From Candidatus Micrarchaeota archaeon (lineage in GTDB: Archaea; B1Sed10-29; WALL01; WAMD01): DNA of 33,865 nt. Position 1 is the first letter of the stretch. The number at the start of each line of letters is the position of its first letter. The translations under genes and the position numbers were made by a program. Below the pieces are notes generated by a model. The model was given only the letters and a program-made list of their open reading frames with translations, was not told where the DNA came from and made no database searches. The stretch is taken from NCBI GenBank assembly GCA_964652335.1, contig CAZZDL010000005.1, positions 1 to 33,865 of the forward strand, written 5' to 3'. Shown here one piece after another: positions 281 to 33,390 of the stretch.

Positions 281-1444
281 ATGGCAAAGCCACGAAAGGT
301 TGAAAGAAGAGCAGATAAAGTGCAAGCTGATTTCTTTGCTAAAGGGATACCAATTCATAGAGAATTTGCACTAATGGCAGCTAAGGAGTACTATGCTCTT
401 CCGTTACGAGAAAGGATTGAATTTGAGCTAAAAAACAGAATAAAAAGAATAAAGCAAATACTGACAGAGCCAGGCACATTGAAAGAAGAAATAGAAAAGA
501 AAAAAGCGGAAAACAGGATAAGAAGAGAGAGGAAGCTAAGGGAAAAATTCAAAGAATTGGGATATGAAGACGAGATTGTGGATGCATTAATCCGCCTTCC
601 AAAAGGAAAAAGAGACAAAGTACTGGAAGAGCTAAAAGTCAAGAGCATAACTCCCCCAAACATAGCATTTAGAATAATGAAGACTGAGCATGCAGATCTA
701 GCAATGAAAGAAGGGCTCAAACCAAGAGAATTTCCGTATTTGAGCGTTAAAACACCTAAAACCATTTTCATTCTAGCTTCACCAGGAATAGCTGAGAACT
801 TCCTTGACAAAAAAGCCAAGAAAAGATTTGAAAAAGGGTACAAAGAGTTCGTCAAAGATAGGTCTAAAATAAGAGAACAAAAAGACAAAGGAGTAAAGAA
901 TATAACAAAAGACGTTTCTGCAATGGCCTCAACATATGAAAGCGTAATGGGGGCTTTGAAGGCCAAAAAGGTTTTGGAAAAAGTGGGAACAGAAGAATCT
1001 CAAATTGCTTGGCTAACAGCGTACTCCAAACTAATGAAACAAGGAGAAATCGAAAACAAACCTAAAATGTCTGTTTTATTAATAGACCTAGAAAAGCTAA
1101 TAGAACATCACAAGAAAAATGGGAAAAATGTCGTGCTAGTAGAAGACCCTGAACTCAAAGGCTCGTATATGATATTTGAAAAAACGAAAAAGGGATTAAA
1201 ACCAATTGATGTGCCTCCACAAGCTCTAAAGAAGGTTGACCTCGGAAGGGTAAGTTATGGAGAATCTAGAGACATCCAAAAAAAGGTTGAAGATGCATAC
1301 ATCAAAGAGCTAGTAAAGGCAATAGAAAAAGAAGAAATAATGAATGCTGCCAGGGAGGAGAAAAAGCATGGAAGAAAAAGAAAGAATAAAACCACAGGTC
1401 AAGTACAGAATAATACAGAAAGGATCACCACCTCCAAAGATTAA
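281..1444 (+). CDS. Orphan basic protein with putative ADP-ribosyltransferase (Tpt1/KptA-like NAD-binding) domain
   Basis: Long ORF; ATG 281 is about 25 nt below a TATTTATT box. PPNIAFRI-x10-EGLKP, SVLLIDLEKL and IDVPPQAL follow the order of the Tpt1 C-terminal domain motifs (PPxxLYHGT..EGLKP, VILxIDxxxL, VPPxxI). CDS confident, function tentative. Confidence 0.5.
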   Translation: MAKPRKVERRADKVQADFFAKGIPIHREFALMAAKEYYALPLRERIEFELKNRIKRIKQILTEPGTLKEEIEKKKAENRIRRERKLREKFKELGYEDEIVDALIRLPKGKRDKVLEELKVKSITPPNIAFRIMKTEHADLAMKEGLKPREFPYLSVKTPKTIFILASPGIAENFLDKKAKKRFEKGYKEFVKDRSKIREQKDKGVKNITKDVSAMASTYESVMGALKAKKVLEKVGTEESQIAWLTAYSKLMKQGEIENKPKMSVLLIDLEKLIEHHKKNGKNVVLVEDPELKGSYMIFEKTKKGLKPIDVPPQALKKVDLGRVSYGESRDIQKKVEDAYIKELVKAIEKEEIMNAAREEKKHGRKRKNKTTGQVQNNTERITTSKD

Positions 1445-2438
1445 TGTATCTTTTGTGGAAGACTTGAAAAAAGAAGCTAAGAAACTAAAAGGGAACAGAT
1501 TCATACTTGTTCAAATGTATCAAGGCCCTTTTGGAAAAGGAGCCTCTGGATACGCAAGGGTAAAGATAGATGATAGCAAGGCAATAATAGAAAAAATAGC
1601 TGGAACCAATTGGGTTCCATTAGAAAAAGAAGATGGAATCATAACAGAACTTGCAAAAAGAATCTATCTAAAAGGCCTGAAACCAGAAGGAGAAATGGCA
1701 GATAAGGTAAAGGCTAAGATGGAAGAAATAAGGAAAACTGAAGAAGTAATAAAACGACTAACAGAAGAAACAAAAAGAGGGTATGTCTCATACGAGCTCG
1801 CAATTGAGACATACAAAAAAATGAATAAGATTAAAAAAATGAGGGAAGAAGATGAAATTCTAAAACTCGCATTACTTTTCCCAATAGAAAAGGCAGAGCA
1901 ACCTAGTTTGTACAACTACATACTGGAAAAATACAGAGACCCAAACATTATAGATGAGATGTACAAATTCAAGCATTGGTACAATCACATATTTACCCCG
2001 GCTCTTTGGAAGCTGGTGAAAAATAAAGAACTAGTGCAGAAATATTTAAGAAAACCAAACAGACTACTGGGTGAAAAGCCAAATCAGAGAATAGTAGCTC
2101 ATCCAAGTGCAGAGGGAGCAATAGAAGATAGGTACGAGAAACTTGAGAAAGAACAAAAAGAATTAGAAGAAAAACTATCTCAAGCCGTTGCACACGTGAT
2201 GAAACGAATAAAGGAGGAAGCACCAGAAATAAGGAAGTGTATGGGGTTTGCAGGTTCTGTTGCAAGGCCAGCCCTACGAACTCCCATGACTGACATAGAT
2301 CTTTGGACAACATATCCATACAACGAATTCTTTGACGACTTAGTAGCAGACGTATTCAGGAGATATGGGATAAGACTTAACATAACAAAGAAGAGAGAAT
2401 TGCCGCCACTTAGAATAAGTAGGAAAAAACGGAAATAA
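1368..2438 (+). CDS. Orphan protein with C-terminal Pol-beta-type (MNT-like) nucleotidyltransferase domain
   Basis: GGAGG RBS before ATG 1368. C-terminal GFAGSVAR-x8-DIDLW matches the hG[GS]-x9-13-Dh[DE]h NTase signature. Ends RISRKKRK. Confidence 0.65.
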   Translation: MEEKERIKPQVKYRIIQKGSPPPKINVSFVEDLKKEAKKLKGNRFILVQMYQGPFGKGASGYARVKIDDSKAIIEKIAGTNWVPLEKEDGIITELAKRIYLKGLKPEGEMADKVKAKMEEIRKTEEVIKRLTEETKRGYVSYELAIETYKKMNKIKKMREEDEILKLALLFPIEKAEQPSLYNYILEKYRDPNIIDEMYKFKHWYNHIFTPALWKLVKNKELVQKYLRKPNRLLGEKPNQRIVAHPSAEGAIEDRYEKLEKEQKELEEKLSQAVAHVMKRIKEEAPEIRKCMGFAGSVARPALRTPMTDIDLWTTYPYNEFFDDLVADVFRRYGIRLNITKKRELPPLRISRKKRK

Positions 2439-2534
2439 TATCCATCAATCGCCCATCAAAATACAAAATAGATATAAACTTGAAATAGTTACACGTCAGT
2501 AACCTTTATCAATTATAGTTCTAAAATTAGTATC

Positions 2535-3443
2535 ATGGATGAGTCAGATGTATGGGACGTGGAAGAAATCCTCAAAAGGATCCTAAAAACAGACATGAAA
2601 GCAATAGCCGATAACAAGGCCCATGTTGAGTTCCTGAAATCAATATTACAAAAAAGGTTGGAAATGGGGATGGAACCACCAATAACTGCTGTCCCAATTT
2701 TGATAAGACAATTGCCTGAGGAGATTGTTCCTGAGAGGTTCAAATCTTTAAAATATGAAGACTTCCATGATGCAGTTAAATGGATGTTTGAGGATGAAGA
2801 AGCCAGAAAACATTTAGAAAAAGCATTACTTCATACAACAGGGGCAACTGAATACACACATGACAACCCGTACTTGGAGCACTTGTTAAACAGTGCTGCA
2901 TTTGAAAACATGAGGATACTTGACATCGGAACTGCGACTGGAGTATACACCAAATCACTGCTTGAAGAAGTGAAAAATCCAATAAAATCGCTAGTAAGAA
3001 CAAACCTTGCGGAGAACATAAAAATAACTCAGCATCCTTGGCAAAAGGATAAGATACCAGATTATAGAGAAATAAAACCATTCAATATAGTAACTGATGT
3101 ACTACCTGAAAAGTTTGACATAGTAATATTCAAGGATGTTTCCAAGTTCCTACACAAGGAAGGTTTAAAGAGGGCTATGGAAAATATCAAGAAAATGACT
3201 GATCATGGATCAATAGTCATATATGGTGGGGAAATAGAGGCTAGCGGGCATGCCAGGTACGTCGGATTTTCAGATGGTAAGAGTGCAATAAGGATACTCG
3301 TCAACCACAATGGAAAATTAGTAGAAGTAGATCCAGAAAGATTCATAAAAGAAGTGGCAAAAGTGAAAAGCAGGGAAGAATATCTCCAAAAGCTTCCCTC
3401 CCTAATAGCCAAGCACAAAATCAGAAAAAGAAAACCTAAATAA
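2535..3443 (+). CDS. Class I SAM-dependent methyltransferase-like orphan protein
   Basis: Motif I RILDIGTATG, later KFDIVIFKDVSKFL and HGSIVIY strands typical of Rossmann methyltransferases. Ends KHKIRKRKPK. Confidence 0.7.
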   Translation: MDESDVWDVEEILKRILKTDMKAIADNKAHVEFLKSILQKRLEMGMEPPITAVPILIRQLPEEIVPERFKSLKYEDFHDAVKWMFEDEEARKHLEKALLHTTGATEYTHDNPYLEHLLNSAAFENMRILDIGTATGVYTKSLLEEVKNPIKSLVRTNLAENIKITQHPWQKDKIPDYREIKPFNIVTDVLPEKFDIVIFKDVSKFLHKEGLKRAMENIKKMTDHGSIVIYGGEIEASGHARYVGFSDGKSAIRILVNHNGKLVEVDPERFIKEVAKVKSREEYLQKLPSLIAKHKIRKRKPK

Positions 3444-3467
3444 ATTAGCTAATCATTATCTCTTCTA

Positions 3468-5945
3468 ATGCAGATAAACGGGTTATCTGAACAGGAAGCT
3501 AAGAAACGGTTTAACATATATGGGGAAAACAAGATTGAAAGAAAGAAAAAAATTTCTCCATTAGAAATGCTTATTTCTCAATTCAAATCTCCCATAATAA
3601 TACTACTTGTCGCGGCCGCGGTAATCTCAATGCTAGTAAATTCAATGAAAGGAGAGGCATTCATTGATAGTATTCTAATTTTAGTCATAGTATTTGCAGC
3701 TGCCATAGCTGGATTCATACAAGACTACAAAGCTGAGAGAACTATAGAAGCGCTAAAAAGGATGGCTGCCCCAACTGCAAAGGTCATAAGAGATGGGAAA
3801 GAAAAAGAAATAGACTCTAGTCTGATTGTACCGGGAGATATAATCGTCTTGTCAGGGGGAGATATAGTCCCAGCGGACGCTATTATCGTGCAAGGGAAAT
3901 TGGAACTAGATGAATCTATGCTAACCGGAGAGTCTAGATCGGTAAAGAGGAAAAAAGGCGACAAGATATTTTCTGGTTGCCCTGTTTATTCTGGAAACGC
4001 GATAGCCAAAGTATACGCAACTGGCATGAACACGGAAATGGGGAAGCTAGCTGCAAGAATGGAAGAGATGGAAGAGGAGGAGACACCATTTGAAGCAAAG
4101 ATGCGAAGTTTCACAAAAAAGATTGTTATTATGACTATAATTATAATCATAATAACTTTCGCAATAGGTCTAAACAAGTTTGGATTGATAGAAGCATTCC
4201 TCATAGCGGTGTCCTTAGCTGTAGCTGCAATACCAGAAGACCTTCCAGCAATAATCACCATCGCATTGTCCCTTGGGGCTAGAGATATGGCCAGCCAGAA
4301 TGCACTTGTAAGAAGACTAGCTGTAACAGAGTCTATAGGATCTGTGGATGTTATATGCACAGATAAAACAGGGACCTTAACTCTAGGGGAAATGAAAGTA
4401 TCTGATTTATGGTTCATAGGAAAATCCGAAGTAGCCAAAGAGCTAGCCGTGAAAGCTTGCTATTTCTGCAATGATGCAAAGATAATTGTGAAAGAAAACG
4501 AGGAAAGATGGGTGGGAGACGAAACAGACATAGCACTAAAAGAATTCTCCTTGGATAAGGTGAAAGAAAATGGAAAAAGAGTGGATGAGATTCCATTTAA
4601 CTCTGAGAGAAAAATGATGGCAGTAGCTTACAGGATAAACAAGGAAATGTTTGTATTTGCGAAGGGAGCTCCAGAAGTAATAGTAGAAAAATGCACTAAA
4701 GCGATAGTTAATGGGAAAATTGTTAAAATGACTAAGAAGATCAAAGAAGGGATACTGGAAGAAAACGGAAAGTATGCCTTCAAGGGAAACAGGGTCCTAG
4801 CTCTAGCTTATAAAAAAGGGAAAGGAAAGCTTGACAAAGAGCTGATTTTCATTGGCCTAGTTATTCTATCTGATCCACCTAGGCCAGAGGTAAGAAGAGC
4901 TATACAAGACTGTTACTCTGCTGGTATACGAGTGATAATGATAACCGGTGACAATCCAAAGACTGCCCTAGCCATTGCAGACAAAGTAGGAATAGAAACT
5001 GATGGAGTAGTGGTAGGTAAAGAATTAGATGCTATGACAGACGATGAACTAGAAAAAGCGTTAGCGAGTGTAAACGTGTTCGCAAGGACAAATCCATTCC
5101 ACAAAACTAGGATCCTTGAGATACTTCAGAAATCAGGACATGTAGTGGCAATGACTGGAGACGGAGTAAATGATTCCCTTGCATTAAAGAAAGCTGATGT
5201 GGGAATCGCAATGGGAAAGAAAGGGACAGAGGTAGCAAAAGAAGCAAGCGACATAATACTGCTGGACGATAATTTTGCAACCATAAGGAATGCCGTAAAG
5301 GAAGGAAGGAGGATATTTGACAACATAAGAAAATTCGTTGATTATCTACTGACCTGTAATGTGGCAGAGGTTCTAGTTGTCTTATCTGCTACGGCATGGC
5401 TTCCATTCATATCATTGTATCCCGCCCAAATATTATGGATAAACCTGATTACAGATGGATTACCTGCCCTGGCTCTAGCTGTAGATCCGCCAAGACCCGA
5501 CGTAATGAAAAGAAAACCAAGAAAAAAGGGGGAAGGAATAATAAACAAGAGACTTGCCATGCTCATTGGGAGCATTGGTTTAGAGAAATCCCTTGTTATA
5601 CTCGGATCGTTCCTCGTAGTCTTGCCATTAGGAGAAGCAAGGGCTAGAACTGTCTTGTTCACAGCATTTATCCTTTATGAGTTCGTAAGAATTGCTGTGA
5701 TAAGGTTTAACGAAAAGCTTTCCAGTCTAAAAGATTGGATGGCAAATAAGTTTTTAGTCGCTTCATTGATAGCTAGTCTCTTGCTGCAAATAGCCCTAAT
5801 ATATACGCCAATTGGAAGCTACTTCAAAGTTGTTCCTTTAGGTTTGTACGAATGGGAAGTACTAATAACCGGAACATTAATAGGCTTCGTATTAGGAATA
5901 GGTATAGCATGGGTAATTGACAAGATCACTGGAGAGGAATACTAA
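3468..5945 (+). CDS. Cation-transporting P-type ATPase, type IIA (Ca2+-ATPase-like)
   Basis: TGES, DKTGTLT phosphorylation site, KGAPE, DPPR, TGDN, GDGVND. Ion-site motifs IPEDLP, NVAE, WINLITDG. Confidence 0.93.
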   Translation: MQINGLSEQEAKKRFNIYGENKIERKKKISPLEMLISQFKSPIIILLVAAAVISMLVNSMKGEAFIDSILILVIVFAAAIAGFIQDYKAERTIEALKRMAAPTAKVIRDGKEKEIDSSLIVPGDIIVLSGGDIVPADAIIVQGKLELDESMLTGESRSVKRKKGDKIFSGCPVYSGNAIAKVYATGMNTEMGKLAARMEEMEEEETPFEAKMRSFTKKIVIMTIIIIIITFAIGLNKFGLIEAFLIAVSLAVAAIPEDLPAIITIALSLGARDMASQNALVRRLAVTESIGSVDVICTDKTGTLTLGEMKVSDLWFIGKSEVAKELAVKACYFCNDAKIIVKENEERWVGDETDIALKEFSLDKVKENGKRVDEIPFNSERKMMAVAYRINKEMFVFAKGAPEVIVEKCTKAIVNGKIVKMTKKIKEGILEENGKYAFKGNRVLALAYKKGKGKLDKELIFIGLVILSDPPRPEVRRAIQDCYSAGIRVIMITGDNPKTALAIADKVGIETDGVVVGKELDAMTDDELEKALASVNVFARTNPFHKTRILEILQKSGHVVAMTGDGVNDSLALKKADVGIAMGKKGTEVAKEASDIILLDDNFATIRNAVKEGRRIFDNIRKFVDYLLTCNVAEVLVVLSATAWLPFISLYPAQILWINLITDGLPALALAVDPPRPDVMKRKPRKKGEGIINKRLAMLIGSIGLEKSLVILGSFLVVLPLGEARARTVLFTAFILYEFVRIAVIRFNEKLSSLKDWMANKFLVASLIASLLLQIALIYTPIGSYFKVVPLGLYEWEVLITGTLIGFVLGIGIAWVIDKITGEEY

Positions 5946-6733
5946 TGGCATTGCAAAAAAGGAGAGGGGTTCCAAGGGAAAAATTTTTGAAAATGCTAGA
6001 TAAAAGAAGAAAGGGAAAATGGACAGAGCCAAGAGAGAATGAGTTATTCCAAAGCCTAAAGGCAACCCGTGCATTCAAGGAAAGAGAAGTAATAGGACAC
6101 AACATAAAGATCCCTCTAACCACTGGGATAGTGAGCGCTCTAAAGAAAGCAGGAGAATCAATTGACAAAGTATATAGCGTCCATAGAAAAAAGGAAGGAA
6201 AGGGGAGAAGAACGATTGAAATAGACTTTTGGGGATTCAAGAATAACAAACATTATCTCTTTGAGTTCAAGAATTTACCACCAGCAGAGAAGGAGAATTT
6301 AAATGCTATAAGGAGATATTACAAACAAGCAGTAGAAGTAGCCAGGCTAGTAAAAAACCACCCGTACATACTAGGAACAGCAGACACAAGGACTCCACCA
6401 ATCAAGGCGGTGGGTAATCCGTTTTACAGGCTCAAAGCGGAGAAATGGATGGAGGGTGGACAGTTAGGCTATTTTCTAATAGTCAATAGACCATTAACAG
6501 AGAAAGAATGGAAAACAGTTGAAAGAATAAGAGAGAAGACAGGGGTCAATGTACCGATAATAATGGATACAGAGGTTTACAAGTTGATTGAGCATATTGA
6601 GAGTGGGAATGAATCTGAAACGTTTGCAGGAAAAGAACAAAGAATTGTCATGCATAGATACAAGCCAGAGGGGCCGATAGACAGGTTCATGAGAAAACAA
6701 AAGAAAGGACCAATAGATAATTGGATTGAATGA
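5945..6733 (+). CDS. Orphan PD-(D/E)xK (restriction endonuclease-like) nuclease
   Basis: TIEIDFWGFKNNKHYLFEFKN fits the EID-x(10-12)-ExK core. Start overlaps the ATPase stop (TAATG). Confidence 0.6.
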   Translation: MALQKRRGVPREKFLKMLDKRRKGKWTEPRENELFQSLKATRAFKEREVIGHNIKIPLTTGIVSALKKAGESIDKVYSVHRKKEGKGRRTIEIDFWGFKNNKHYLFEFKNLPPAEKENLNAIRRYYKQAVEVARLVKNHPYILGTADTRTPPIKAVGNPFYRLKAEKWMEGGQLGYFLIVNRPLTEKEWKTVERIREKTGVNVPIIMDTEVYKLIEHIESGNESETFAGKEQRIVMHRYKPEGPIDRFMRKQKKGPIDNWIE

Positions 6734-7375
6734 CTACTCTTCCAAACCCAACATCTTCCTCAACTGTATCCTTCTCGCTATGGAAAGCTTAGATAAAATC
6801 CATCTTATTCTAGACTCCACATATGGCTGCAAACTCCTGTATAAGACCAAATCAGCCTCTTTCATCTTTTCTTTATGCTTATTAAATACCTCCGAAAGGA
6901 TATAACTTGCATCCCATGGTACTGCTTCCATCATCTCGGTGGTCACAGCAGTCACATCTTCTGGATGATAACAGTCATCAAATGCATTCCCATACTTTTC
7001 TACTAGCATCTTCTCAATGTCATTTAATATCTTTAGGAAATGCTTGTCTGCCTTTTCCATCCTTTTCTCAAATTCCTCGTAGTGCTTGTCTATTTCCTCT
7101 TCACTCATTTTGTCTATGTCTCTACTGTTGAACTTTCTCTTTATTTCAGAGACCCCATGCCGTTCAAGTAAGAGAGAGTAAAACGGATTGAATACTTCAT
7201 GGTCTGTTACTTCTTCCATATCTCCTTCCTTGTACCTAACTTGTATAGTGTACATATTGCCAAATCTGTCCACAGGCCTCCTGATTACTCTAGTATACTT
7301 CCTAACACTAAGTGGTGGAGTCCCTGGAATAGGTGATTTCACCTGTCTCTTTTTCTTCTTAGATCCTCTGGCCAT
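6734..7375 (-). CDS. Hypothetical protein with basic N-terminus
   Basis: 213-aa ORF filling the gap below pyrD; starts MARGSKKKKRQVK; no recognisable family motif. Confidence 0.7.
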   Translation of the reverse strand: MARGSKKKKRQVKSPIPGTPPLSVRKYTRVIRRPVDRFGNMYTIQVRYKEGDMEEVTDHEVFNPFYSLLLERHGVSEIKRKFNSRDIDKMSEEEIDKHYEEFEKRMEKADKHFLKILNDIEKMLVEKYGNAFDDCYHPEDVTAVTTEMMEAVPWDASYILSEVFNKHKEKMKEADLVLYRSLQPYVESRIRWILSKLSIARRIQLRKMLGLEE

Positions 7376-8446: not shown

Positions 8447-9307
8447 ATGGATGAAGAGACATTTGAACAAAAGTTTGAAGCTGCAATCCCTGTGTTAATA
8501 CTGCTTTTATTGATTATTGGTATAATAGCCCTGAATCCTAGCTGGTTATCAGGGATACCAGTCATAGGAGACTTCTTCCAGGGCAAGACAATTAACGTAC
8601 TAGTTATAACAGACGACATGAACGAAGTTAGTATCTGGCAAAGCATGTTGTCAAGCGACATGGCAAGGAGAGTATTCGGGAACACACTAAACGTTGAAGG
8701 CCTTATAGGATCCCAGACAGAAAGCGAAATAATATCTGCAGATGCTCTGGACAAGAAAGGATATGATCTAATTATATTGACTAGTACACATGTTCCACCT
8801 AGTGTCCAGCTGGTCCTAAGAGACTGGGTGAACAATGGTGGAAAGCTGTACATAGCCAGCCTAGGAGGTATAAACGATAATCACAGATGGGGAGAACTAG
8901 CAAGCCTGGTCCCTGTACAATGCAGTGCAGATGGAGAATGCGTTGGTGTCATAACACCTGTCTACGGCGCTACAATCTATCCCCAAGATATAAACAACCC
9001 ACTCGCTGAGAAGTTTGCTCCAAAGACAGAGCTAACCTCAGGAAATGAAAGTGTGAACATAGCAAACGTTTCCCCGTTGTATTCCCAAATAATGTACATT
9101 GGAGGATGGGAATCACCAAGTCAAGTGGAAGCTGGAAAGGTTGGAAACATATATCCATTCGTCACTGAGAACTCACAGTCAACAGGAGGAAAGGTATTTT
9201 ACATAAGCATTAATCCGGCTACAGAAAACATTGATTCGGACATTAAGCAGAGAGTAATAATAAACACCGTGGCATACGTAATGGGAGTGGAAGGATACAC
9301 GGAGTGA
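8447..9307 (+). CDS. Membrane-anchored class I GATase-like (DUF4350/ThuA-like) protein, paralogue A
   Basis: N-terminal TM followed by IPVIG, then GYDLIIL, WVNNGGKLYIA, NNPL, GKVFYISINP. Confidence 0.6.
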   Translation: MDEETFEQKFEAAIPVLILLLLIIGIIALNPSWLSGIPVIGDFFQGKTINVLVITDDMNEVSIWQSMLSSDMARRVFGNTLNVEGLIGSQTESEIISADALDKKGYDLIILTSTHVPPSVQLVLRDWVNNGGKLYIASLGGINDNHRWGELASLVPVQCSADGECVGVITPVYGATIYPQDINNPLAEKFAPKTELTSGNESVNIANVSPLYSQIMYIGGWESPSQVEAGKVGNIYPFVTENSQSTGGKVFYISINPATENIDSDIKQRVIINTVAYVMGVEGYTE

Positions 9308-9311
9308 TTGT

Positions 9312-10184
9312 ATGTTTGAGGGATTCAGCGAGAAATACGGAGATTGGGCGATCCCCCTAATCCTTGTAGTTATAATAGGCGGTCTCTTGGCTGTGAAGGT
9401 ATTCAATCTATACTGGATACCTGTTATTGGTCCTTTAGTGGTAGGCCCTGAGGGAATAATAAGGACACTAATAATAACAAACCCAGATGACTACGATGCA
9501 GCCAAGCAATTTGCAACAGAACTAAGGTCAAAGGTTCCAGGAGTAGTAGCAGTAATAGACGATAATGTTCTCCAACACATAAAGGAAGGTTACATAACTT
9601 CAAACAAATACGACCTAGTTGTCCTTTATGGAGATAATACTGCCCTGACCTATGAAGCTAGAAAAGAGATTGCTAGATACGTAAACTCTGGTGGAAATCT
9701 AATGATAGTGGGGGCGGCTGGACTCCACGACATGACCTCTGACGGAACAATATCCCCATACACATTCTCATGGGGAGTAGACGACATGGCAGGAATTATC
9801 ACATTTGCCCCAGATTGTGGAGACGCTGTAGAATGCAATGTTAACGCGATAAAGATAACACCTGCAGAAATAGGCAATAAGATAACATTTGTTCCTGTTT
9901 TATGGGATCATCCAGTAATAGCAAGAATGGGTGTAAATGCACCAGTGGAAATGGATGTAACTCCAGAATTCCATGGCTTGACAAAGGTGCAAGACCTTGC
10001 AAACCAGAGAATTGCTTACCTAGAATGGAGAGACTCTAATAACAAGCCTCATTCTGTCCCAGCGATAATTGCATACCAAAGCGGTGTTTCTGGTAGAATA
10101 GTCTATCTAGCCTACAACCCGCTAGAGCTGAAGCAAGAGGCATTGTTCAGGAACATCGTCCTATGGGTTGCAGGAAAGCTGTAA
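9312..10184 (+). CDS. Membrane-anchored class I GATase-like (DUF4350/ThuA-like) protein, paralogue B
   Basis: N-terminal TM followed by IPVIG, then KYDLVVL, YVNSGGNLMIVG, DHPVI, GRIVYLAYNP. Starts 4 nt after paralogue A. Confidence 0.6.
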   Translation: MFEGFSEKYGDWAIPLILVVIIGGLLAVKVFNLYWIPVIGPLVVGPEGIIRTLIITNPDDYDAAKQFATELRSKVPGVVAVIDDNVLQHIKEGYITSNKYDLVVLYGDNTALTYEARKEIARYVNSGGNLMIVGAAGLHDMTSDGTISPYTFSWGVDDMAGIITFAPDCGDAVECNVNAIKITPAEIGNKITFVPVLWDHPVIARMGVNAPVEMDVTPEFHGLTKVQDLANQRIAYLEWRDSNNKPHSVPAIIAYQSGVSGRIVYLAYNPLELKQEALFRNIVLWVAGKL

Positions 10185-22417: not shown

Positions 22418-22911
22418 TATGGTAACATCAACCAAACGACAAAAATCAGCAATGCAAATATTCCTAACTCAGAAATGCTTCCTGTTCTGACTGCCCATCT
22501 AATTCTATGCTTGTCAAATGGAAAAAACCATGCAACGCCAGATGAAGTAAGAGAATCGGCAAACAAGTGCATTAAATAGCCTAGAGAGAAAGCCAACGCT
22601 GGCCAAAGGCTGAAACGGCCAAACACTCTAAGAATCAGCAAAGCCAAAGGGAACGAGAGTATAAATGCAAATATTGTATGCGTAACCCCTCTATGGCCAC
22701 CTAAACTAATGACCCTGCTTGACATCTGCAGGAATCCGTTCAGATGACTGATATAAGACTTTGGATGATCTATATCTGGAATAAGAGAGCCAATGGAAAC
22801 AGCAATTATCAATTCAGCTGAGTTTGGGACTACACCCAGCTTTACCAAAGCTAAATAGGAAACTAATCCAAACAACAAATGAGTAGTCCACATCATACTA
22901 ATTCGCTCCAT
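22417..22911 (-). CDS. YdjM-like membrane metal-dependent hydrolase
   Basis: THLLFG, GSLIPDIDHP, HRGVTHT, GYLMHLFADSLT..GV within several TM segments. Confidence 0.85.
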   Translation of the reverse strand: MERISMMWTTHLLFGLVSYLALVKLGVVPNSAELIIAVSIGSLIPDIDHPKSYISHLNGFLQMSSRVISLGGHRGVTHTIFAFILSFPLALLILRVFGRFSLWPALAFSLGYLMHLFADSLTSSGVAWFFPFDKHRIRWAVRTGSISELGIFALLIFVVWLMLP

Positions 22912-24836
22912 CAATACAATATGAAATCAACTAGGTTATTCATGAATACTTCATCTGTCTCAGGTGGGAAAGCATAGTAAACAACAACTCCCCTGCCAAA
23001 TACATGGCTGCCATACTTTGGATCCCTAACTGTGATAGCTGGCCATAAAGACTCTCCCTTGTATGGTGGCTGTATTTCCAACGAGGCTACAACATGGCTG
23101 TATTCACCATTGCTAGCCACTAGGACAAACGGAACTGGATTCCCATACTTATCTTTCAGTACTGTAGACTTTGTTATCCCCTTCACCAGAGGGTGCTCCT
23201 CATCCTCCACTCTGAAGTAGGCTATAGCACTGGCATTCGTCGGAAGACTGACTTTAGACGCTTGCTCTATTGCGTCTGCTAAATGCGAGCTAGCCTCATG
23301 GCAGAAGGTATCGGAGCGCAATGCCGCTGTGTAATCAGAAAAGTTATCTGCGTTCATTATCAACCAATAGACATTCTCATCTGTCGGTGAATAAGTTAAG
23401 GAAAGTAACCTTTGCAGATCTGTCCTATCAATGCCTGTGGATTTAGAATAAGCATCAACAAAACCTGGTGCTTCCTTGCAATTAGATAGCTGGTTCTTTA
23501 TACTCATGTATGTATCCCTTGCTGTCTCTAAAGATGATTTATATCCCTCCAAATGCTGGATTATGCTATCATATTGCTCTATATGTGTCTGGTCTTCCTC
23601 ATAGCCTTTTATCTGGGAGAGTAAGCTAACCGCGTTATCTAAGAAAGATGTATCCAAATCTTCTGGCTTAATATCCTTCAGATAATCCTTTCCATCTGTT
23701 AAAACATTTATAACACTTGCAATCCTATCCGCCTGAGTTATATTTCCGTTTAACCTCTTCTCACTTTCTATGCTTGATAATGTAGAGATATCAGAAGTCA
23801 GCCCAATCCTAGCATTTGAAACAGATGAATCAAAATTATCTAGCTCTGCCTCTAACTTGGCAGTCAGTACATCTTTATTACATCCTGTTGGAGAGAACGT
23901 CTCAGAACAGTTAACCAAACTAGAATGAGCAAGAGACAACTTATTCTTTATCAAAGTAAAATCATCTGAAAGCTCTTGATAAGTGGAAACAGCATGAGAA
24001 TCAGAGATAAATGTTATTCCCAGAACATCGCTACCAAAGTTCACACCTTCAGATTCTCCACCACCTATTAACTCATATTTTCCTCTATCCCATGGATTAG
24101 TTATCTGCTTAAAATCATCCTCGTTCTCCCATGATATGTAAACATTTGAATACCTGTTATCCGTATTTATACAATGATACCCCTGTTTCGTTTTAACGCT
24201 TTGAAGCTCTCCTGAAAACGCATCTTTACATAGCTGAGAGAGCTTATCCCATGCCAAAGCATAGAGCTCATCGCTCAAACCGACTGCCATATCTGAAGAA
24301 TGTTCTGAAGAAGTCATAGTCACACAAACAGTCTCAGTTCCCTCTGACTCCTTTGTCCCTTCATCTGTCGTATACTTAGCTACATAATCCACATCTCTAC
24401 AGACGCTGTCTCTAGAACCTCCACCTATCCCTGAATCTCCTACCCAAACGAGTCTCCCTGTTCCAGAAATTACATAATCATAGAAATATCTCATTTTCTC
24501 GGTTGGTATGTCTCTTGCATGTTCAACAATGACAACGTCATACTTATCAAGCATACCAGCTGAAAGCTGGTCAACAGTCACCTCTCTGACATTTATCCTT
24601 TTCACGTCTTCCATATACCTAGACAATGCAAGTGGATCTCCCATACCATATCCATCCGGGTCATAAACTAGCATAACCTTTGGAGCACCAAATATCCCAT
24701 AGTATATACTACAATAGCTGGCCCCAAGGGTTGAACATCCTACCAATCCAACTCTAGTCAAAACAAGCAATAGGGCAAATAACAAAACAGCCAAAGCAAT
24801 TATGTGGGGAAGATCCCTACTCAATTCTCCTCTCAT
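22911..24836 (-). CDS. Membrane-anchored GATase-like (DUF4350-like) protein with large helical insertion, paralogue C
   Basis: N-terminal TM, KYDVVIV, YVISGTGRLVWVG, then after a long Cys-containing helical insert EHPLV, WPAI, GVVVYYAFPP. Same motif order as 8447-10184. Confidence 0.55.
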   Translation of the reverse strand: MRGELSRDLPHIIALAVLLFALLLVLTRVGLVGCSTLGASYCSIYYGIFGAPKVMLVYDPDGYGMGDPLALSRYMEDVKRINVREVTVDQLSAGMLDKYDVVIVEHARDIPTEKMRYFYDYVISGTGRLVWVGDSGIGGGSRDSVCRDVDYVAKYTTDEGTKESEGTETVCVTMTSSEHSSDMAVGLSDELYALAWDKLSQLCKDAFSGELQSVKTKQGYHCINTDNRYSNVYISWENEDDFKQITNPWDRGKYELIGGGESEGVNFGSDVLGITFISDSHAVSTYQELSDDFTLIKNKLSLAHSSLVNCSETFSPTGCNKDVLTAKLEAELDNFDSSVSNARIGLTSDISTLSSIESEKRLNGNITQADRIASVINVLTDGKDYLKDIKPEDLDTSFLDNAVSLLSQIKGYEEDQTHIEQYDSIIQHLEGYKSSLETARDTYMSIKNQLSNCKEAPGFVDAYSKSTGIDRTDLQRLLSLTYSPTDENVYWLIMNADNFSDYTAALRSDTFCHEASSHLADAIEQASKVSLPTNASAIAYFRVEDEEHPLVKGITKSTVLKDKYGNPVPFVLVASNGEYSHVVASLEIQPPYKGESLWPAITVRDPKYGSHVFGRGVVVYYAFPPETDEVFMNNLVDFILY

Positions 24837-24934
24837 ATCAATCAAATAAACTAATGGAAAATGTATTTTTTAATCTTTGCATGATATTAACTATAAATCC
24901 ATAAAAGGCGGAACGAACGCAAACAGCAGAGAAG

Positions 24935-25991: not shown

Positions 25992-26002
25992 CAGGTGATT
26001 GA

Positions 26003-26554
26003 ATGGAAGCATATCAATACATGATAAAAATAAAAAATGCATTCCAAAACTTGGATACCATAAAACTGAGAGAAATAGCCAACCAAGCAATGGAAGAAGC
26101 TGTCTTGAGGAATGATAAACTTCTTGCAAGCGTTGCCATATTCTCATACTCTCTCTCAAAAATACTAACAAAGGTACACTTTAGAAAGAGAGAAGACTGG
26201 GGAAAGTTCAAGAAGGTCATGTCCAGGGAGCTTTCAATGCTTGTGGGATTAACAAAAACAAGGAAAGATATCTATAGAATAATTGAAAACAAGCTGATAA
26301 AACTGGTGGAGGAAATAGACAAAGAAGCTGGGAATTACACAAGGAACCTTGTATACAAAGCTAGAGTGAAGATGGCCTCTACGGCGTACGCTCTGGGAGT
26401 GAGTATAGGAACAGCTGTTGAGCTTACAGGAGCAGACAAATTTGAACTACTTAGATACATTGGGGTTACAAAGATACATGATAGGCCTTACACTAGGACA
26501 ATGAGTGCATTAGAAAGATACAAAATTGCAAGGAGGGTTTTGCGTGCAAGGTGA
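26003..26554 (+). CDS. Helical protein with C-terminal UPF0175-like HTH (candidate antitoxin/partner of the PIN protein)
   Basis: GVSIGTAVELTGADKFELLRYI resembles the UPF0175 pattern (ISLGKAAELAG..EF). GGTGA RBS; overlaps the downstream PIN gene. Confidence 0.5.
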   Translation: MEAYQYMIKIKNAFQNLDTIKLREIANQAMEEAVLRNDKLLASVAIFSYSLSKILTKVHFRKREDWGKFKKVMSRELSMLVGLTKTRKDIYRIIENKLIKLVEEIDKEAGNYTRNLVYKARVKMASTAYALGVSIGTAVELTGADKFELLRYIGVTKIHDRPYTRTMSALERYKIARRVLRAR

Positions 26555-27209
26555 GCCAATAGTATCAGATACTGGGCCGCTGATTTCCCTGGCTGAAAAC
26601 TGCTTATTATGGATACTTGACCTCATAGAAAACGATGTAATAATCCCAAAGGGAGTAGAATATGAAGCAATAACACATCCCCTAGGTATATACAAATACG
26701 AGCTTAATGCGTTAAGAATAAAAGAGGCGGTTACGACAGGGAGCATAATAGTTGACGAAACACCCCTGAAAAAGGAGGCGAGAGAAATACTGAGCCTGGC
26801 AAACAGGCTAATACTTCATAAAAAAAGGCCCTTAACTATTATACAAGAAGGGGAGGCAGAGGTTATAGGTCTAGCACTAAAGAAAGGATACAAAACCCTT
26901 GCAATAGATGAAAGAACTGCAAGGCTTTTAGTGGAAGATGTCTGGCAGATAGAGAATTATATGGAAAGCAGACTAGGAACTGAGCTAGAGACAAATGACA
27001 AAATCGCAGAAATAATTGAGGAAAAGCTTCACGGCTTAAACGTAATACGGTCCAGCGAGATAATCGCATTCGCATTTGAAAATGGATTGATCTCTCATTT
27101 AGCTGATAAAAAGACAATGCTAGAAGCTCTGTTATACGGAGTTAAATCAACAGGGTGTGCAATAACAAATGATGAGATAAAGGAATACCTAAATGCATTG
27201 GGAAAATAG
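26544..27209 (+). CDS. PIN-domain ribonuclease (DUF3368/VapC-like)
   Basis: IVSDTGPLISL, IIPKGVEYE, GEAEVIGLA, LAIDERTAR give the PIN acidic quartet. GGAGGG RBS before GTG 26544. Confidence 0.8.
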   Translation: MQGEPIVSDTGPLISLAENCLLWILDLIENDVIIPKGVEYEAITHPLGIYKYELNALRIKEAVTTGSIIVDETPLKKEAREILSLANRLILHKKRPLTIIQEGEAEVIGLALKKGYKTLAIDERTARLLVEDVWQIENYMESRLGTELETNDKIAEIIEEKLHGLNVIRSSEIIAFAFENGLISHLADKKTMLEALLYGVKSTGCAITNDEIKEYLNALGK

Positions 27210-28504: not shown

Positions 28505-30130
28505 ATGAAAGAGCCTACGAAAGAATATGGTGGAGAATTGCCCCATGAAACAATGAGCGTCTGTCCAGTCTGCAATAAAGTCATTCCTGCACTAGTCTAT
28601 GAAGAAGATGGGAAAGTGTGGGAAAAGAAAACGTGTCCAGAGCATGGTGAGTTCAAAGAAATATACTATGAAGACGTTGAAGTGTACAATAAATTCAGAA
28701 AATTGGCGTATACATGGGGAAAACTAGAGAGCTTTAATACACCTGCAGAAAAGGAATGTCCATGGTCATGCGGATTATGTCCGATGCATCTATCTCACAC
28801 AAATCTTTTAAACATTGTCTTGACCAACAGATGTGATTTGTCATGTTGGTATTGCTTTTTCTATGCAAAAAAGGGAATGCCAATATACGAGCCTAGTATT
28901 GAACAAATAAGGGAAATGCTAGAGTTGGGAAAGAAGGAGAGGCCAGTCTCATGTAATGCTGTGCAGTTTACTGGTGGAGAACCCACAATGAGAGACGATC
29001 TACCTGAGATAATAAGACTAGCTAAAGAACTTGGTTACGAACATGTACAGCTAAACACAAATGGTATAAGGATCTCTAAAGACATCAACCTCCTAGAAGA
29101 AGTAGTAAAGAATGGTGTAAACGTTCTATATCTTAGCTTTGATGGGATAACTCCAAAGACGAATATCAAGAATCACTGGGAAACGCCGTTCGTCCTTGAA
29201 AATGTAAGAAAGGTTAGGAACGTCGGGATTGTCCTTGTCCCGACTGTCATAAAGAATACAAATCTGCATGAAGTTGGGGAAATCCTCAAGTTTGGGCTCA
29301 ACAACATTGACGTGGTGAGAGGAGTAAATTTCCAACCAGTTAGCTTGGTTGGCTCAATGCCGAAGGAAGAAAGAAAAAAATATAGAGTGACGATACCTGG
29401 AGTAATGAAGGCATTGGAGGAGCAAACGAACGGTGCAGTTTCTGTCAAGGACTGGTACCCAATACCTACCGCCGGGATAATTGGAGAATTCATTTACAGG
29501 CTAACTAATAATCAATATTGGATGACGAGCCATTTCGCGTGTGGAGCTGCAACTTATGTATTCCTAGGAAAGAATGATGAAGTTATGCCAATCACCAAAA
29601 TTGTAGACGTAGATGGATTTATAGAGTTTATCAGAGAAAAGTCTGCAGAGCTAGAGAAAGGTAGAAGTCCTGCCATAGTGAAAGCAAAGCTCATGGTGAA
29701 CCTGCCAAGGTTTGTGGATATTGGAGAAATGAAAAAGCTGGGAGGACTGGACTTAGCAAAGCTGATATACAATGCATTTGTGAAGGCTGATTACTCTGCT
29801 CTAGGAGAGTTCCATAAGAGAACTCTCTTCATTGGTATGATGCACTTCCAAGATCCATTTAACTATGACGTTGAAAGGGTAAGAAGATGTGTTATTCATT
29901 ATGCGACACCAGATGGAAGAGTAATTCCATTCTGTACATTTAATGTGTTCCCAGACGTCTACAGAGATGCTATTCAAGAGAAGTTTAGTATTCCATGGGA
30001 GGAATGGATGAAGACCCATCCAGGGTATGACATGGCTAAAGAAAAATATGTCAGATCAAAGGAAGACATTGCAAAGATGGAATCAAGCGAGGTATACAAG
30101 AAGGCATATAACGGAAAGGATTTCTGGTGA
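28505..30130 (+). CDS. tes: Radical SAM tetraether lipid synthase (Tes/GDGT-MAS, MJ0619 family)
   Basis: N-terminal CPVC..CPEH, CPWSCGLCPMH, rSAM motif CDLSCWYC, FTGGEPT, RGVNFQP, HFACG, MHFQD..NYD.ERVRRCVIHY..IPFC. Confidence 0.85.
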   Translation: MKEPTKEYGGELPHETMSVCPVCNKVIPALVYEEDGKVWEKKTCPEHGEFKEIYYEDVEVYNKFRKLAYTWGKLESFNTPAEKECPWSCGLCPMHLSHTNLLNIVLTNRCDLSCWYCFFYAKKGMPIYEPSIEQIREMLELGKKERPVSCNAVQFTGGEPTMRDDLPEIIRLAKELGYEHVQLNTNGIRISKDINLLEEVVKNGVNVLYLSFDGITPKTNIKNHWETPFVLENVRKVRNVGIVLVPTVIKNTNLHEVGEILKFGLNNIDVVRGVNFQPVSLVGSMPKEERKKYRVTIPGVMKALEEQTNGAVSVKDWYPIPTAGIIGEFIYRLTNNQYWMTSHFACGAATYVFLGKNDEVMPITKIVDVDGFIEFIREKSAELEKGRSPAIVKAKLMVNLPRFVDIGEMKKLGGLDLAKLIYNAFVKADYSALGEFHKRTLFIGMMHFQDPFNYDVERVRRCVIHYATPDGRVIPFCTFNVFPDVYRDAIQEKFSIPWEEWMKTHPGYDMAKEKYVRSKEDIAKMESSEVYKKAYNGKDFW

Positions 30131-31045
30131 TCATTTCTTACGAGTCCTTTGCTTTGCTTTTGTCTTTTCAATCTCCTTTTTCAGCTTTTCCCATGCGTCT
30201 GTCCACGACTTGAGGGCAGTTATCTTCTCTGATATCTCTTCTAGTGAGTATCCCTTTGAAGCTAGATCATCTATAACTTTCTGCATCTGTTCCTCCTCGT
30301 TTATGAAGTTGTAAATCAGCTTCTCTACCTTGTCTCTAGGCAACTCCCTAGCTTCTTTTGGTAGCATACTAATAAATTCTTCTGGTGGGATCGTGAGTAG
30401 ACCGCTTTTGTCAGGCTTTAACCTCTTTGAAAGGTTCTCCAGATCGTAATCTCTAACCCTTCCTTCTCTAAGCAGATTAAAGAAGATATATCTCTCCAAT
30501 TGAGCCAATGGAGTATATCTCAGCTTACCTTTGAATGTAAACCTCCTAGTTACCTTCGCCCCTTGATCCTCAAGATCTCTCTTTATTATGTGATACAGAT
30601 AGTGATTAGCTCCAACAGTTATGCAGACATTTTTTGCATCTGATTTTTTCAATGCATCCTTTACTCTTTTTGCCATATACAAATCCCTATTTATCTTGAA
30701 CAATAAGGCAACTAAGGGATCAGTATACATATTTGACAAATGTGCCTTTCTAAGACTAATATTGTCTATGGGAATAATCTTATCCTTCATCTCTATTAAT
30801 AACTTCCTTAACCTAGACTCAAATCCGCTAAGCATCCCTTTCAGCTCTACAGGATTCTTACTCGTTAAAAGCTCAAATTCCTCTGGCGCCATCTCAAGCA
30901 GTATAAGGTCTGCTTTTTTCCACTCTTCCCGTATCCTATCCACGGAGGCAGGAGAATGAACATCCATCAAAAAAGTTATCTTTCTCTTGGGCTGTGTATC
31001 CTTCCTTTTGCTCTTACTGGCCTTGCTACTCCTCGGCTTAACCAT
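30131..31045 (-). CDS. Orphan TraB/Tiki (EreA/ChaN-like superfamily) protein, putative metalloprotease/hydrolase
   Basis: Motif order FLMDVH ... ADLILLE ... NRDLYMA ... VCITVGANH parallels TraB (GTAH, VAVE, ERDxYMA, VVGAGH). Basic N- and C-termini. Confidence 0.6.
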   Translation of the reverse strand: MVKPRSSKASKSKRKDTQPKRKITFLMDVHSPASVDRIREEWKKADLILLEMAPEEFELLTSKNPVELKGMLSGFESRLRKLLIEMKDKIIPIDNISLRKAHLSNMYTDPLVALLFKINRDLYMAKRVKDALKKSDAKNVCITVGANHYLYHIIKRDLEDQGAKVTRRFTFKGKLRYTPLAQLERYIFFNLLREGRVRDYDLENLSKRLKPDKSGLLTIPPEEFISMLPKEARELPRDKVEKLIYNFINEEEQMQKVIDDLASKGYSLEEISEKITALKSWTDAWEKLKKEIEKTKAKQRTRKK

Positions 31046-32706
31046 CACATCCTCTCCGGAGCGTGAATACCTAATAGATCTAATCCAATGTTCAAAACTA
31101 TTGCAACCCCTTTCACAATAGCTAGTCTCTCCTCCTCTTTATCGCTTCCAATTACCTTCTCCTTGTGGTAAAACTCATTAAACAGGCTTGCTAACGAATA
31201 GAGATAATTGGCTATTAGATTGGGCTTCCTCTGAGAACCTGCTTCCAACACTACCTCTGGGAACTCTGCCAGCTTTAGAACTAGCTCCCATTCATTATTA
31301 TTCACAGATTCAAACTCAGGTCTAGGCTCACTGGTCGCCTTCCTCAATATGCTCCTGGCCCTGGCATGTGTATACTGCAGATACGGGCCAGTGTCGCCCT
31401 CAAACCTAAGTGCCTCTTCCCAATTAAAGCTTATCCTTTTCATTGGATCCACTCTAATCAAGAAGTACTTTATAGCGCCAATACTGACTTTCTCTGCTAC
31501 CTCTTCCTTATTTTCCAAATCTGGATTCTTTTCCTTTATGGCAATCAATGCCTTTTCCTTGCCTTCGTCCAAAACTGCATCCACTGGAACGGTTTCTCCC
31601 CTTCTAGTTGACATCTTCCTACCAGCTAAATCCACAAAGCTAAAATGAACAGTCTCTAACCTATCTCCATCTTGACCAATCGCATTCAGCAACGCCTTCA
31701 ATTCCTTGGCTTCTAGCTTATGGTCCTCTCCTAAGACGTTTATACAATACCCTTTCTTCAGCTTCTCAATGTGATATGCCAAATCCCTGATCAAGTAAAC
31801 ACTTGTCCCGTCAGGTCTTGCAATAACTGTATCTCTCCCCATGCCCAGGTCAACGGCCAACGCCCCTGTGTCCAGCTTCTTTACTCCCAGTCTGGAAACT
31901 AAATCCATTGCTTCCTTTACCTTTCCACTGGCTATCAGGTCGCTTTCATAATCATAAACATCATAATGAAATCCACATCTACTAAGAGTCTCCTTCATTC
32001 CAGTAAGGCAAAGGCCTGCTGTTTTTTTCAGCTTAGCCAAAAGATCTTCATCGCCGTTCTCTGCCCTGAACAAAAATTCATCTACTTCCTTTTTGAAGTC
32101 TTCATTTTCTTCAGACAGTTTGTAGGCAGGAACGTACCTAAAGAACACTTGAAAATCATTCTTTTCTGCGTATTTACCCCATTTTTTCACAAGCTCTTGA
32201 TCTGGTTCTATTCCCTTCTCAAACGCCAAAGCAATCAATGCCATTTGCCTTCCAACATCATTTACATAGTAGTGTGTTTCCACTTCATAGCCAAGGAATG
32301 TTAAAATTCTTCTCAATGAATCCCCTATGACTGGATTCCTAAATCTACCGATGTGTATAGGTCCTGTAGGATTGACACTTGTATGCTCAAGAACAATCTT
32401 CTCCCCATTGGACGGCATGGATCCATATCTAGCATTGAAAACTTCTTTAAGTAGAGCACTTGCTAACTTTCTCCTGTTCAAGAAAACATTCACATATGCC
32501 CCTGCCACTTTCACGCCATCTATCCATTCGGACTTTGCTTCCTCAAGCCTCTCCGCAATGCGCTTGGCTGTCTCCTCTTTGTCCTCAAATCTGAATGCAG
32601 TCTTCACTGTCAGATCCGCGAACTTGCTTCTAGTGATATCCCTAGGTGTGGCTGAAAAATCTGCCAGTAACTCTGCAAGATTTTCCTTTAGATCAATGAG
32701 AGCCAT
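31045..32706 (-). CDS. argS: Arginine--tRNA ligase
   Basis: EHTSVNPTGPIHIGRFRN, YYVNDVGRQ, YLIRDLAYH, KMSTRRG, GDTGPYLQYTHAR, C-terminal APERM. Confidence 0.97.
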   Translation of the reverse strand: MALIDLKENLAELLADFSATPRDITRSKFADLTVKTAFRFEDKEETAKRIAERLEEAKSEWIDGVKVAGAYVNVFLNRRKLASALLKEVFNARYGSMPSNGEKIVLEHTSVNPTGPIHIGRFRNPVIGDSLRRILTFLGYEVETHYYVNDVGRQMALIALAFEKGIEPDQELVKKWGKYAEKNDFQVFFRYVPAYKLSEENEDFKKEVDEFLFRAENGDEDLLAKLKKTAGLCLTGMKETLSRCGFHYDVYDYESDLIASGKVKEAMDLVSRLGVKKLDTGALAVDLGMGRDTVIARPDGTSVYLIRDLAYHIEKLKKGYCINVLGEDHKLEAKELKALLNAIGQDGDRLETVHFSFVDLAGRKMSTRRGETVPVDAVLDEGKEKALIAIKEKNPDLENKEEVAEKVSIGAIKYFLIRVDPMKRISFNWEEALRFEGDTGPYLQYTHARARSILRKATSEPRPEFESVNNNEWELVLKLAEFPEVVLEAGSQRKPNLIANYLYSLASLFNEFYHKEKVIGSDKEEERLAIVKGVAIVLNIGLDLLGIHAPERM

Positions 32707-32748
32707 AACTATCTTTACCAGCTACTAAAATTTAACCATTGCGCAGGC

Positions 32749-33390
32749 TCAGCTCTTTTGAAAATGCTCCTTCATTATCTGATCAACAATCTTTTTTGCA
32801 TTCTCTGGATCCAATGGTTCAACCAAGAAACGGACATTGCCTTTTTCTACCTTTGCTGCAAAGCTATTCTCTCCCAAAGAATGTATAATTCCTTCCTTCC
32901 CTGCAAATGCTGCCTCCACAGTTCCAGACTTCAAATGTTGAATAACTCTCTTAACGTCTGGCCTACCTCTCATCTGCGCAAGTTCCCAATTAGTGAGCGT
33001 TAATGCTGTGTGTCTTCTTACCTTCTCTAAAACATGATCAGGAATCTTAAGTTCCTTTGCGACAGCTGGGAGAATATTATTCACATGATCTAAAAACTCA
33101 GCTCCAGAGCTAAGCACTTCTAAATCTCCCCTATGTGGAGACGCCTCATGCTTAATTCCAGTTGAAGTAACGGTTATATCATGTCTTATATTCCCGACAG
33201 ATCCAACTATCTTCCATTCTCTTGGCACTCCATCTTTATCTTTGATAACTCTAAGAGTAGTTGGATGCCATTTTCCCCCCTTTATCATGTACGCATCCTC
33301 AAAACGTCCAGTCTTTTTAGGTGTAACTATAATCTTCATTCCCTTTGGGACATGCTCCATACTAGTTTCCTTTACCTTCCTAACAACCAA
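32749..33390 (-). CDS. Hypothetical protein
   Basis: Long ORF; GAGGGGTG RBS-like site points to TTG 33390 (MVVRKVKE). No family recognised. Confidence 0.65.
   Translation of the reverse strand: MVVRKVKETSMEHVPKGMKIIVTPKKTGRFEDAYMIKGGKWHPTTLRVIKDKDGVPREWKIVGSVGNIRHDITVTSTGIKHEASPHRGDLEVLSSGAEFLDHVNNILPAVAKELKIPDHVLEKVRRHTALTLTNWELAQMRGRPDVKRVIQHLKSGTVEAAFAGKEGIIHSLGENSFAAKVEKGNVRFLVEPLDPENAKKIVDQIMKEHFQKS

Follow-up and report, generated by a model that had tools for sequence, protein, structure and literature searches.

The window analysed here is contig C5 (33 865 nucleotides) of the G000 assembly, which at 821 kb and 51 contigs is 96.8% complete and comes from a DPANN archaeon that belongs to a small class, 31 genomes of which were compared; the lineage and the small genome suggest that the organism lives as a symbiont. 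The sequencing runs that match it best are hydrothermal-vent metagenomes, either of which may be its source. Seven window genes, lying singly or in twos and threes amid housekeeping genes and not in islands, encode soluble proteins of narrow distribution (orphans) with lysine- and arginine-rich ends, which a first-pass annotation of this DNA had put forward as candidate effectors. All seven open reading frames are present at the positions it gave. Net charge was counted as lysine plus arginine minus aspartate and glutamate over the first or last 15 residues; an end of +4 or more is called basic, and a protein in which both ends reach +4 is called double-ended. The genes are located at 281-1444 (plus strand, 387 amino acids, N-/C-terminal charge +4/0), 1368-2438 (plus, 356 amino acids, +2/+7), 2535-3443 (plus, 302 amino acids, -4/+7, with an acidic N-end), 5945-6733 (plus, 262 amino acids, +5/+2), 6734-7375 (minus, 213 amino acids, +7/+2, with an acidic body and no recognised fold), 30131-31045 (minus, 304 amino acids, +6/+6) and 32749-33390 (minus, 213 amino acids, +2/+2). 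The last begins with TTG downstream of a ribosome-binding site, and its orthologue in the same-genus genome G001 starts at the same point.

The annotation described six orphans with strongly basic ends and the gene at 32749-33390 as a weaker fit. Both statements hold in the sense that six of the seven have at least one end at +4 or more, the weak member being the exception at +2/+2, but only one gene (30131-31045) is strongly basic at both ends. Over the last 15 residues three of the seven proteins reach +6 or more; in three others it is chiefly the N-end that is basic. In 281-1444 the basic C-terminal patch named by the annotation is found 17-27 residues ahead of the stop, within a 77-nt overlap with 1368-2438; the letters of this overlap are identical in a second assembly, which possibly derives from the same source, and two homologues of 281-1444 terminate in a basic tail without the overlapping extension. 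Among the 18 non-orphan genes of the window the N-end is at +4 or more in none and the C-end at +5 or more in three. A hydrophobic signal stretch was sought in the seven proteins and none was found: the best 10-residue hydropathy within the first 40 residues is at most 0.95, compared with 2.6-3.7 in two membrane genes of the window, and a Sec/Tat-type h-region following a basic n-region exists in none of the seven. There is no small gene of antitoxin or immunity size downstream of any of them, and a PHROGs scan for viral origin gave no match.

Five unrelated catalytic cores had been proposed for these proteins. The protein of 2535-3443 is predicted to be class I S-adenosylmethionine-dependent methyltransferase-like on weak matches, all of them below cut-off (Pfam methyltransferase, E 0.0014; NCBIfam UbiG, E 4e-4), together with a motif I of the hhDhGxGxG-like type; its single homologue, P0011, matches CheR at 1.9e-5. 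Three further cores are indicated by motifs or by matches below cut-off. Near its C-terminus 1368-2438 has the sequence pattern GS-x11-DxD, which fits what we take to be the Pol-beta-type nucleotidyltransferase motif, G[GS]-x(9-13)-DxD; its first two elements are kept in both orthologues, the third acidic position is apparently Asn, and the G001 orthologue (47% identity) retains the motif with a C-end of +8. No match to this protein was obtained in Pfam, NCBIfam or PDB sequence searches. In the PD-(D/E)xK nuclease-like protein of 5945-6733, D94, E107 and K109 are invariant in three aligned sequences and were seen in three more, although no profile or structure match for PD-(D/E)xK was found; this patchy family is present in five of the 31 class genomes, and all six full sequences have a basic start. 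The TraB/Tiki-like metallopeptidase fold of 30131-31045 is suggested by Pfam TraB_PrgY_gumN (E 4e-5, and 2.4e-5 for the G001 orthologue; 24.0 and 24.8 bits against a cut-off of 26.8), and the His, Glu, Arg and His residues that we presume to form the metal site are retained in that orthologue at 58% identity; a single-sequence structure model (predicted local distance difference test, pLDDT, 47) was too poor for a fold test.

The fifth core, an ADP-ribosyltransferase-like one in 281-1444 behind a helical N-terminal half, is a candidate that the searches left unconfirmed. An Atlas feature score of 0.84 to Arr/PARP clusters and a template modelling score of 0.54 by target to an RNA 2'-phosphotransferase cluster are both under threshold, an alignment of homologues shows an invariant Arg after the first strand, and a three-sequence AlphaFold model (pLDDT 53, core 28-47) matched no fold. 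Only three matches to this protein occur among 1.84 billion representatives, one of which (P0012) is apparently the G001 gene. Foldseek and VIA searches with models of 281-1444 and 30131-31045 returned helical bundles or nothing and neither confirmed nor excluded a fold. Among PDB sequences no significant match to the window proteins or to their alignments was found, and an Atlas search with 6734-7375 gave no usable match.

Terminal charge was then compared across the genome. A simple codon-and-ribosome-binding-site caller gave 905 genes; 201 of the 751 complete proteins of at least 100 amino acids were removed as membrane or secreted, 318 soluble proteins had a match in G015, a genome from the same class, and of the 232 others 231 were scanned against Pfam (E<=1e-7), leaving 92 soluble orphans and 457 known soluble proteins. 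The Pfam filter was added because a first bulk test, which used G015 alone, gave no difference between C-ends taken singly (59/353 vs 53/398), ordinary genes having diluted the class. With the filter, the N-end is basic in 23 of 92 orphans and 47 of 457 known proteins, the C-end in 28 of 92 and 61 of 457, and both ends in 12 of 92 and five of 457, so that terminal basic charge is indeed higher in orphans than in core proteins, as the annotation had anticipated. Excluding the window does not remove the double-ended excess (11/84 vs 5/445, p=2e-6), and the excess of charge is limited to about 15 residues per end. The five double-ended known proteins, named by eye and from Pfam, are two ribosomal proteins, a Nop5-like protein, ATP synthase D and a HypC-domain protein. 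With the cut applied to a single end, some 30 orphans of at least 120 amino acids qualify, dispersed across 15 contigs and six of them in the window; the class is impure, a few of these weakly matching ordinary families.

When each protein was compared with its own interior, 11 of 80 orphans were double-ended against 0.6 expected, a number reached in none of 2000 simulations, whereas the known proteins gave five of 426 against 4.0 expected; because the charge of the orphans exceeds that of each protein's interior, it is terminal and not a property of the whole length. Of the 15-mers taken from in-frame flanks and alternative frames, 5-18% have a charge of +4 or more, and the tails contain less Asn than the bodies, whereas A-rich drift should give them more. 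Neither whole-length basicity nor A-rich drift nor read-through into the flanks accounts for the double-ended excess. Very long lysine-rich C-tails (+8 to +11) were seen, as a separate matter, on three housekeeping proteins of G000: a malate/lactate dehydrogenase (Pfam) at C23:4670-5638, and, by eye, TFE at C1:86286-86864 and RpoE at C10:20269-20844. Another kind of end was noticed in G000 C15:190-762 and G015 C2:25822-26325, which have no BLAST match with each other and nevertheless share a near-identical start, Met-Gly-Ile-Phe-Asp...Arg-Gly-Lys-Arg-Pro; the similarity would fit a possible second, amphipathic type of N-terminal targeting.

The basic-ended orphan class extends beyond G000 into relatives, of which we sampled 319 kb of G001, 56 kb of G002, 72 kb of G003 and 258 kb of G005, leaving out G004. 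In G002, G003, G005 and G015, read in part or in full, double-ended proteins were counted among those without and with a hit, giving 0/3 vs 2/35, 3/8 vs 1/46, 3/44 vs 0/90 and 2/61 vs 4/290, respectively; the pooled figures are 8/116 vs 7/461 (p=0.004), these sets having no Pfam filter and the counts being non-independent through kinship. Three window orphans occupy the same sites in G001, in which other basic orphans stand at other sites, and 6734-7375 is missing from its syntenic G001 site. The genes at 281-1444, 1368-2438 and 30131-31045 were found in G001 and not in G002-G005, and the syntenic G001 orthologue of 32749-33390 is 30% identical with an N-end of +4. Most orthologue tails in G001 remain basic without aligning, at identities of 25-58%. 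Against G001, shared genes have a median identity of 78% (n=139), other orphans one of 59% (n=12) and the basic orphans, which were, it must be added, chosen for their charge, one of 46% (n=13). The window genes are thus lineage-restricted and fast-evolving, and are not conserved housekeeping enzymes, the alternative that the annotation had named. P0011 is labelled as a protein of a Caldisphaeraceae metagenome-assembled genome; both P0011 and P0014, a homologue of 5945-6733, likely come from a mis-binned DPANN contig and are at most a faint hint of a co-occurring host.

In the wider class, Pfam cut-offs are passed by an FHA domain in a G001 orthologue, a GNAT domain in a G005 orphan and ChaN/Tiki in a G001 orphan. 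Weak matches point to a DDAH-type deiminase, a Bud32/Rio2-type kinase and a CheD-type protein; HEAT and TPR repeats also occur, and motifs that we take for those of HExxH peptidases, phosphoribosyltransferases and transglutaminase-like proteins were recognised by eye. A further example is a soluble, highly charged orphan of 3119 amino acids (G000 C1:168197-177556; L048:31-9390) with scattered TPRs, basic ends and a partial homologue in G005. On weak matches and motifs, then, the predicted cores comprise methyl-, acetyl- and nucleotidyltransferases, a kinase, a deiminase, peptidases, a nuclease, FHA and TPR/HEAT. Many of these would act on proteins, for which a nucleic-acid-binding tail is of no obvious need.

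Taken together, several findings suggest to us, tentatively and with a probability that falls slightly short of even, that the class is an effector repertoire aimed at a host archaeon, the basic ends serving as a charge-based label: the excess of charge is terminal and limited to about 15 residues, it persists in orthologues whose tails do not align and recurs in relatives, and the proteins evolve fast, come and go at sites amid housekeeping genes and have no Sec/Tat signal. This reading is drawn because dispersed, quickly replaced proteins, enzymes as well as adaptors, that have no partner and carry a basic end free of any motif resemble bacterial type IV substrates, and because DPANN cells have direct channels to their hosts. 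In Legionella, Dot/Icm-type effector repertoires are likewise dispersed, lineage-restricted and fast-turning sets of varied enzymes without immunity partners, and they share with the present class kinase, acetyltransferase, peptidase, deamidase, nucleotidyltransferase and repeat domains; they differ in that the presumed host here is archaeal, no type IVB machine is present and the cores are mostly below profile cut-offs. As to the route, a nanotube or cytoplasmic bridge is reported between Microcaldus variisymbioticus ARM-1 and its host (PMC11329633), and such a structure would offer a physical path for exchange of macromolecules between symbiont and host. However, that organism belongs to another lineage, and the cargo discussed in the relevant part of the report consists of metabolites, enzymes and DNA, with no effector set or sorting signal (PMC11329633).

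Several facts weigh against an effector repertoire, beyond the choice by charge behind the 46% median and the single double-ended gene of the window. Gene starts in G000 are approximate. The tails have no common sequence motif, apart from a bias at position 2 towards Pro (13/92 vs 22/457 in known proteins) or Ala (16/92 vs 33/457). A small terminal charge excess exists in all known proteins too, and a Lys/Arg bias at C-ends is described as general in bacteria (PMC7246954). Housekeeping ends that do not align with distant homologues are basic in 13 of 72 cases (N) and 14 of 66 (C), and the orphans, with 22/80 and 24/80, do not differ significantly from them (p 0.18 and 0.26); one basic end is thus poor evidence. 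A test of identity against terminal charge over 179 orthologue pairs, made without the orphan label, was not significant, the fastest bin (n=13) having an N-end of +2.2 against +0.8 (p=0.08). For free-living archaea we took 88 no-hit proteins encoded around FEN1, dropped 16 near-duplicates and scanned the other 72; of the 19 without a Pfam match two were basic at the N-end, three at the C-end and none at both, a small control that points in the same direction non-significantly (double-ended p=0.12). FEN1-neighbourhood proteins without a Pfam filter, and hence too diluted to be informative, included no double-ended member among 20 from Micrarchaeota or 14 from the Woesearchaeota clade.

These figures bear directly on the possibility that there is no shared signal at all, and that weakly constrained free ends in a Lys-rich proteome drift towards Lys/Arg or are mildly selected to it for expression, stability or solubility; on this view orphans would differ just in having more such ends, and their enzymes, unrelated to one another, would act inside the symbiont. 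We consider this somewhat unlikely. It draws strength from the rates of single basic ends on dispensable housekeeping tails, such as that of malate dehydrogenase, from the general bacterial bias and the weak label-free test just given, from the quoted tail of 281-1444 that falls in a gene overlap, and from the average of +1 to +1.6 per 15 codons in alternative frames of purine-rich DNA. Against it stand the 11 double-ended orphans among 80, which under the rates of dispensable housekeeping tails still have p about 0.003 with their uncertainty included, and the 16 housekeeping proteins with both ends unaligned, none of which is double-ended. Many of the basic housekeeping tails, moreover, belong to ribosomal or other nucleic-acid-binding proteins (named by eye), the orthologue tails are still basic at 25-58% identity, and free drift leaves the enzyme repertoire and its turnover unexplained.

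Nucleic-acid binding itself suggests another explanation, which we regard as improbable: the proteins may serve the symbiont itself as enzymes of conflict or regulation (antiviral, anti-plasmid or dormancy-related), tethered by their tails to DNA, RNA or ribosomes. Nuclease-, nucleotidyltransferase- and ADP-ribosyltransferase-like cores are common in defence, and the window has candidates for such cores, the last only as a possibility. The 5945-6733 family keeps its basic N-end with an Arg-Gly that is conserved across families, as a nucleic-acid grip would, and the short Lys/Arg-rich ends are like the basic extensions of ribosomal and nucleic-acid-binding proteins, which in G000 too are found on housekeeping proteins, two ribosomal ones being among the five double-ended known proteins. 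The orphan class is unlike such extensions in being double-ended far above the expectation from interiors or known proteins. PADLOC, with a 2023 library of systems known by then, gave for the seven window genes one weak methyltransferase match (3e-5) and no operon, and so lends defence no support. The PHROGs scan was blank, and the genes are placed singly amid housekeeping genes, without islands or antitoxin-sized partners; FHA, HEAT/TPR, peptidase and kinase members have no obvious need for a tether.

The annotation had likened the basic ends to signals of VirB/D4 type IV secretion. In those systems C-terminal positive residues are read by the VirD4 coupling ATPase (PMC11098119), and the substrates, such as the Agrobacterium Vir effectors and Bartonella Beps, are unrelated soluble enzymes with a short, motif-poor charged terminus and no Sec/Tat signal, as here (PMC11098119). 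The present proteins differ in carrying the charge at the N-end, the C-end or both, in having no shared BID-like domain and in belonging to an archaeon, and translocation can here only be inferred. Nor does the analogy hold for the machine, a further count against export to a host: in G000 (96.8% complete, 51 contigs) VirB4 (PF19044, PF03135) has no match at E<=0.001, VirD4/TrwB (PF10412) has just two P-loop-only matches below cut-off, and the TatC family was not found. The search for secretion ATPases that the annotation recommended did bring out other types. Five TadA/VirB11-type ATPases were typed by NCBIfam, most of them adjoining membrane-platform and pilin-like genes, and a sixth is seen by eye on C47; a soluble HerA/FtsK-type ATPase is present as well.

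With no dedicated translocon found in the VirB4, VirD4 and TatC searches, the proteins could instead be weapons against competing microbes or toxins that enter by themselves, released without a machine, with polybasic ends that bind anionic membranes like cell-penetrating peptides. Short, Arg/Lys-rich, motif-free tails would suit this idea, which we nonetheless hold to be very unlikely. Polymorphic toxins are defined by a trafficking domain and an adjacent immunity gene; the seven window genes have neither a recognised N-terminal trafficking domain nor an adjoining immunity-like gene nor a Sec/Tat signal, and form no islands. The likeness lies in the folds, as the predicted PD-(D/E)xK, nucleotidyltransferase and possibly ADP-ribosyltransferase domains overlap with the toxin tips of archaeal polymorphic toxin systems, among which PD-DExK is named (PMC6393860). 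Adaptor-type members (FHA, TPR, HEAT), on the other hand, are better suited to host manipulation than to killing.

For delivery into a host the candidate motor, and no more than a candidate, is a DUF87 HerA/FtsK-type ATPase at G000 C7:14397-16751 (L057:14397-16751, minus strand), a soluble protein of 784 amino acids with intact Walker motifs and a C-terminal winged-helix-like region. Of the 31 class genomes 29 encode it, most with 57-89% identity across the part that aligns, and it is at least as conserved as FEN1; in five genomes long, intein-sized inserts lie near its P-loop. In G000 it stands two genes from a SecG/Sec61-beta-like gene (by eye), and in G005 it lies amid basic-ended orphans, two of them homologous to class members of G000. 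A subfamily at about 34-40% occurs in seven of eight Woesearchaeota-clade genomes (the unpublished G040 being left out). Less favourable to a role in delivery are relatives at about 38% in two free-living Methanosarcinales, its absence from searches of seven Micrarchaeota, and the lack of a match in G015, which has some basic-ended orphans. No description of its function was found in the literature searched. In G003 (L247:6526-8831) a different HerA-like gene adjoins a NurA-like one (both by eye); it is absent from the syntenic G000 site, which speaks against equating the class-conserved ATPase with the HerA of repair. Another locus of G000, C19:889-6937 (L077), carries a run of some eight genes for small membrane proteins, adjoining a degenerate DUF87 ATPase-like gene (5077-6531) and two small conserved genes common to G015, and may encode an uncharacterised membrane complex.

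If the effector repertoire is real, the basic ends would be a loose, charge-based address label on about 30 scattered soluble orphans. The proteins would be caught by their tails at the site of cell contact and would cross the symbiont-host junction, perhaps powered by the C7 ATPase or by one of the six TadA/VirB11-type ATPases, and the delivered enzymes would modify host proteins and nucleic acids. The complete scheme, in which dozens of rapidly replaced enzymes and adaptors are sorted by polybasic ends and threaded by the HerA/FtsK-type ATPase via a cell-contact channel into an archaeal host, is a bolder proposal, and in that full form we think it unlikely. Literature on the action of DPANN cells on hosts contains images of contact structures, and neither symbiont-encoded effectors nor a sorting signal or basic-ended orphan class was found there, in a search that lay outside subscription papers and supplements. 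The present sequence rule (soluble orphan, basic ends, fast turnover) leaves a small number of candidate proteins, along with one putative motor. Should the effector reading prove true, bacterial effector injection would have its first archaeal counterpart, with a signal readable from sequence, and archaea a new means of manipulating other cells; the reading would also explain part of the large unannotated gene fraction of DPANN genomes and supply new families of thermostable enzymes.

The window contains several other features. Three membrane-anchored proteins with ThuA/GATase-like extracellular domains are encoded at 8447-10184 and 22911-24845, and their identity to G001 (70-88%) is far above that of the orphans. 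Between 16176 and 19439 there is a secreted surface protein of 1087 amino acids with an FG-GAP propeller, Ig-like domains and a C-terminal anchor, which is a probable adhesin. Right after FEN1, at 26003-27209, lies a conserved pair of genes encoding proteins of 183 and 221 amino acids, the latter PIN-like by eye, with 78-83% identity to G001.

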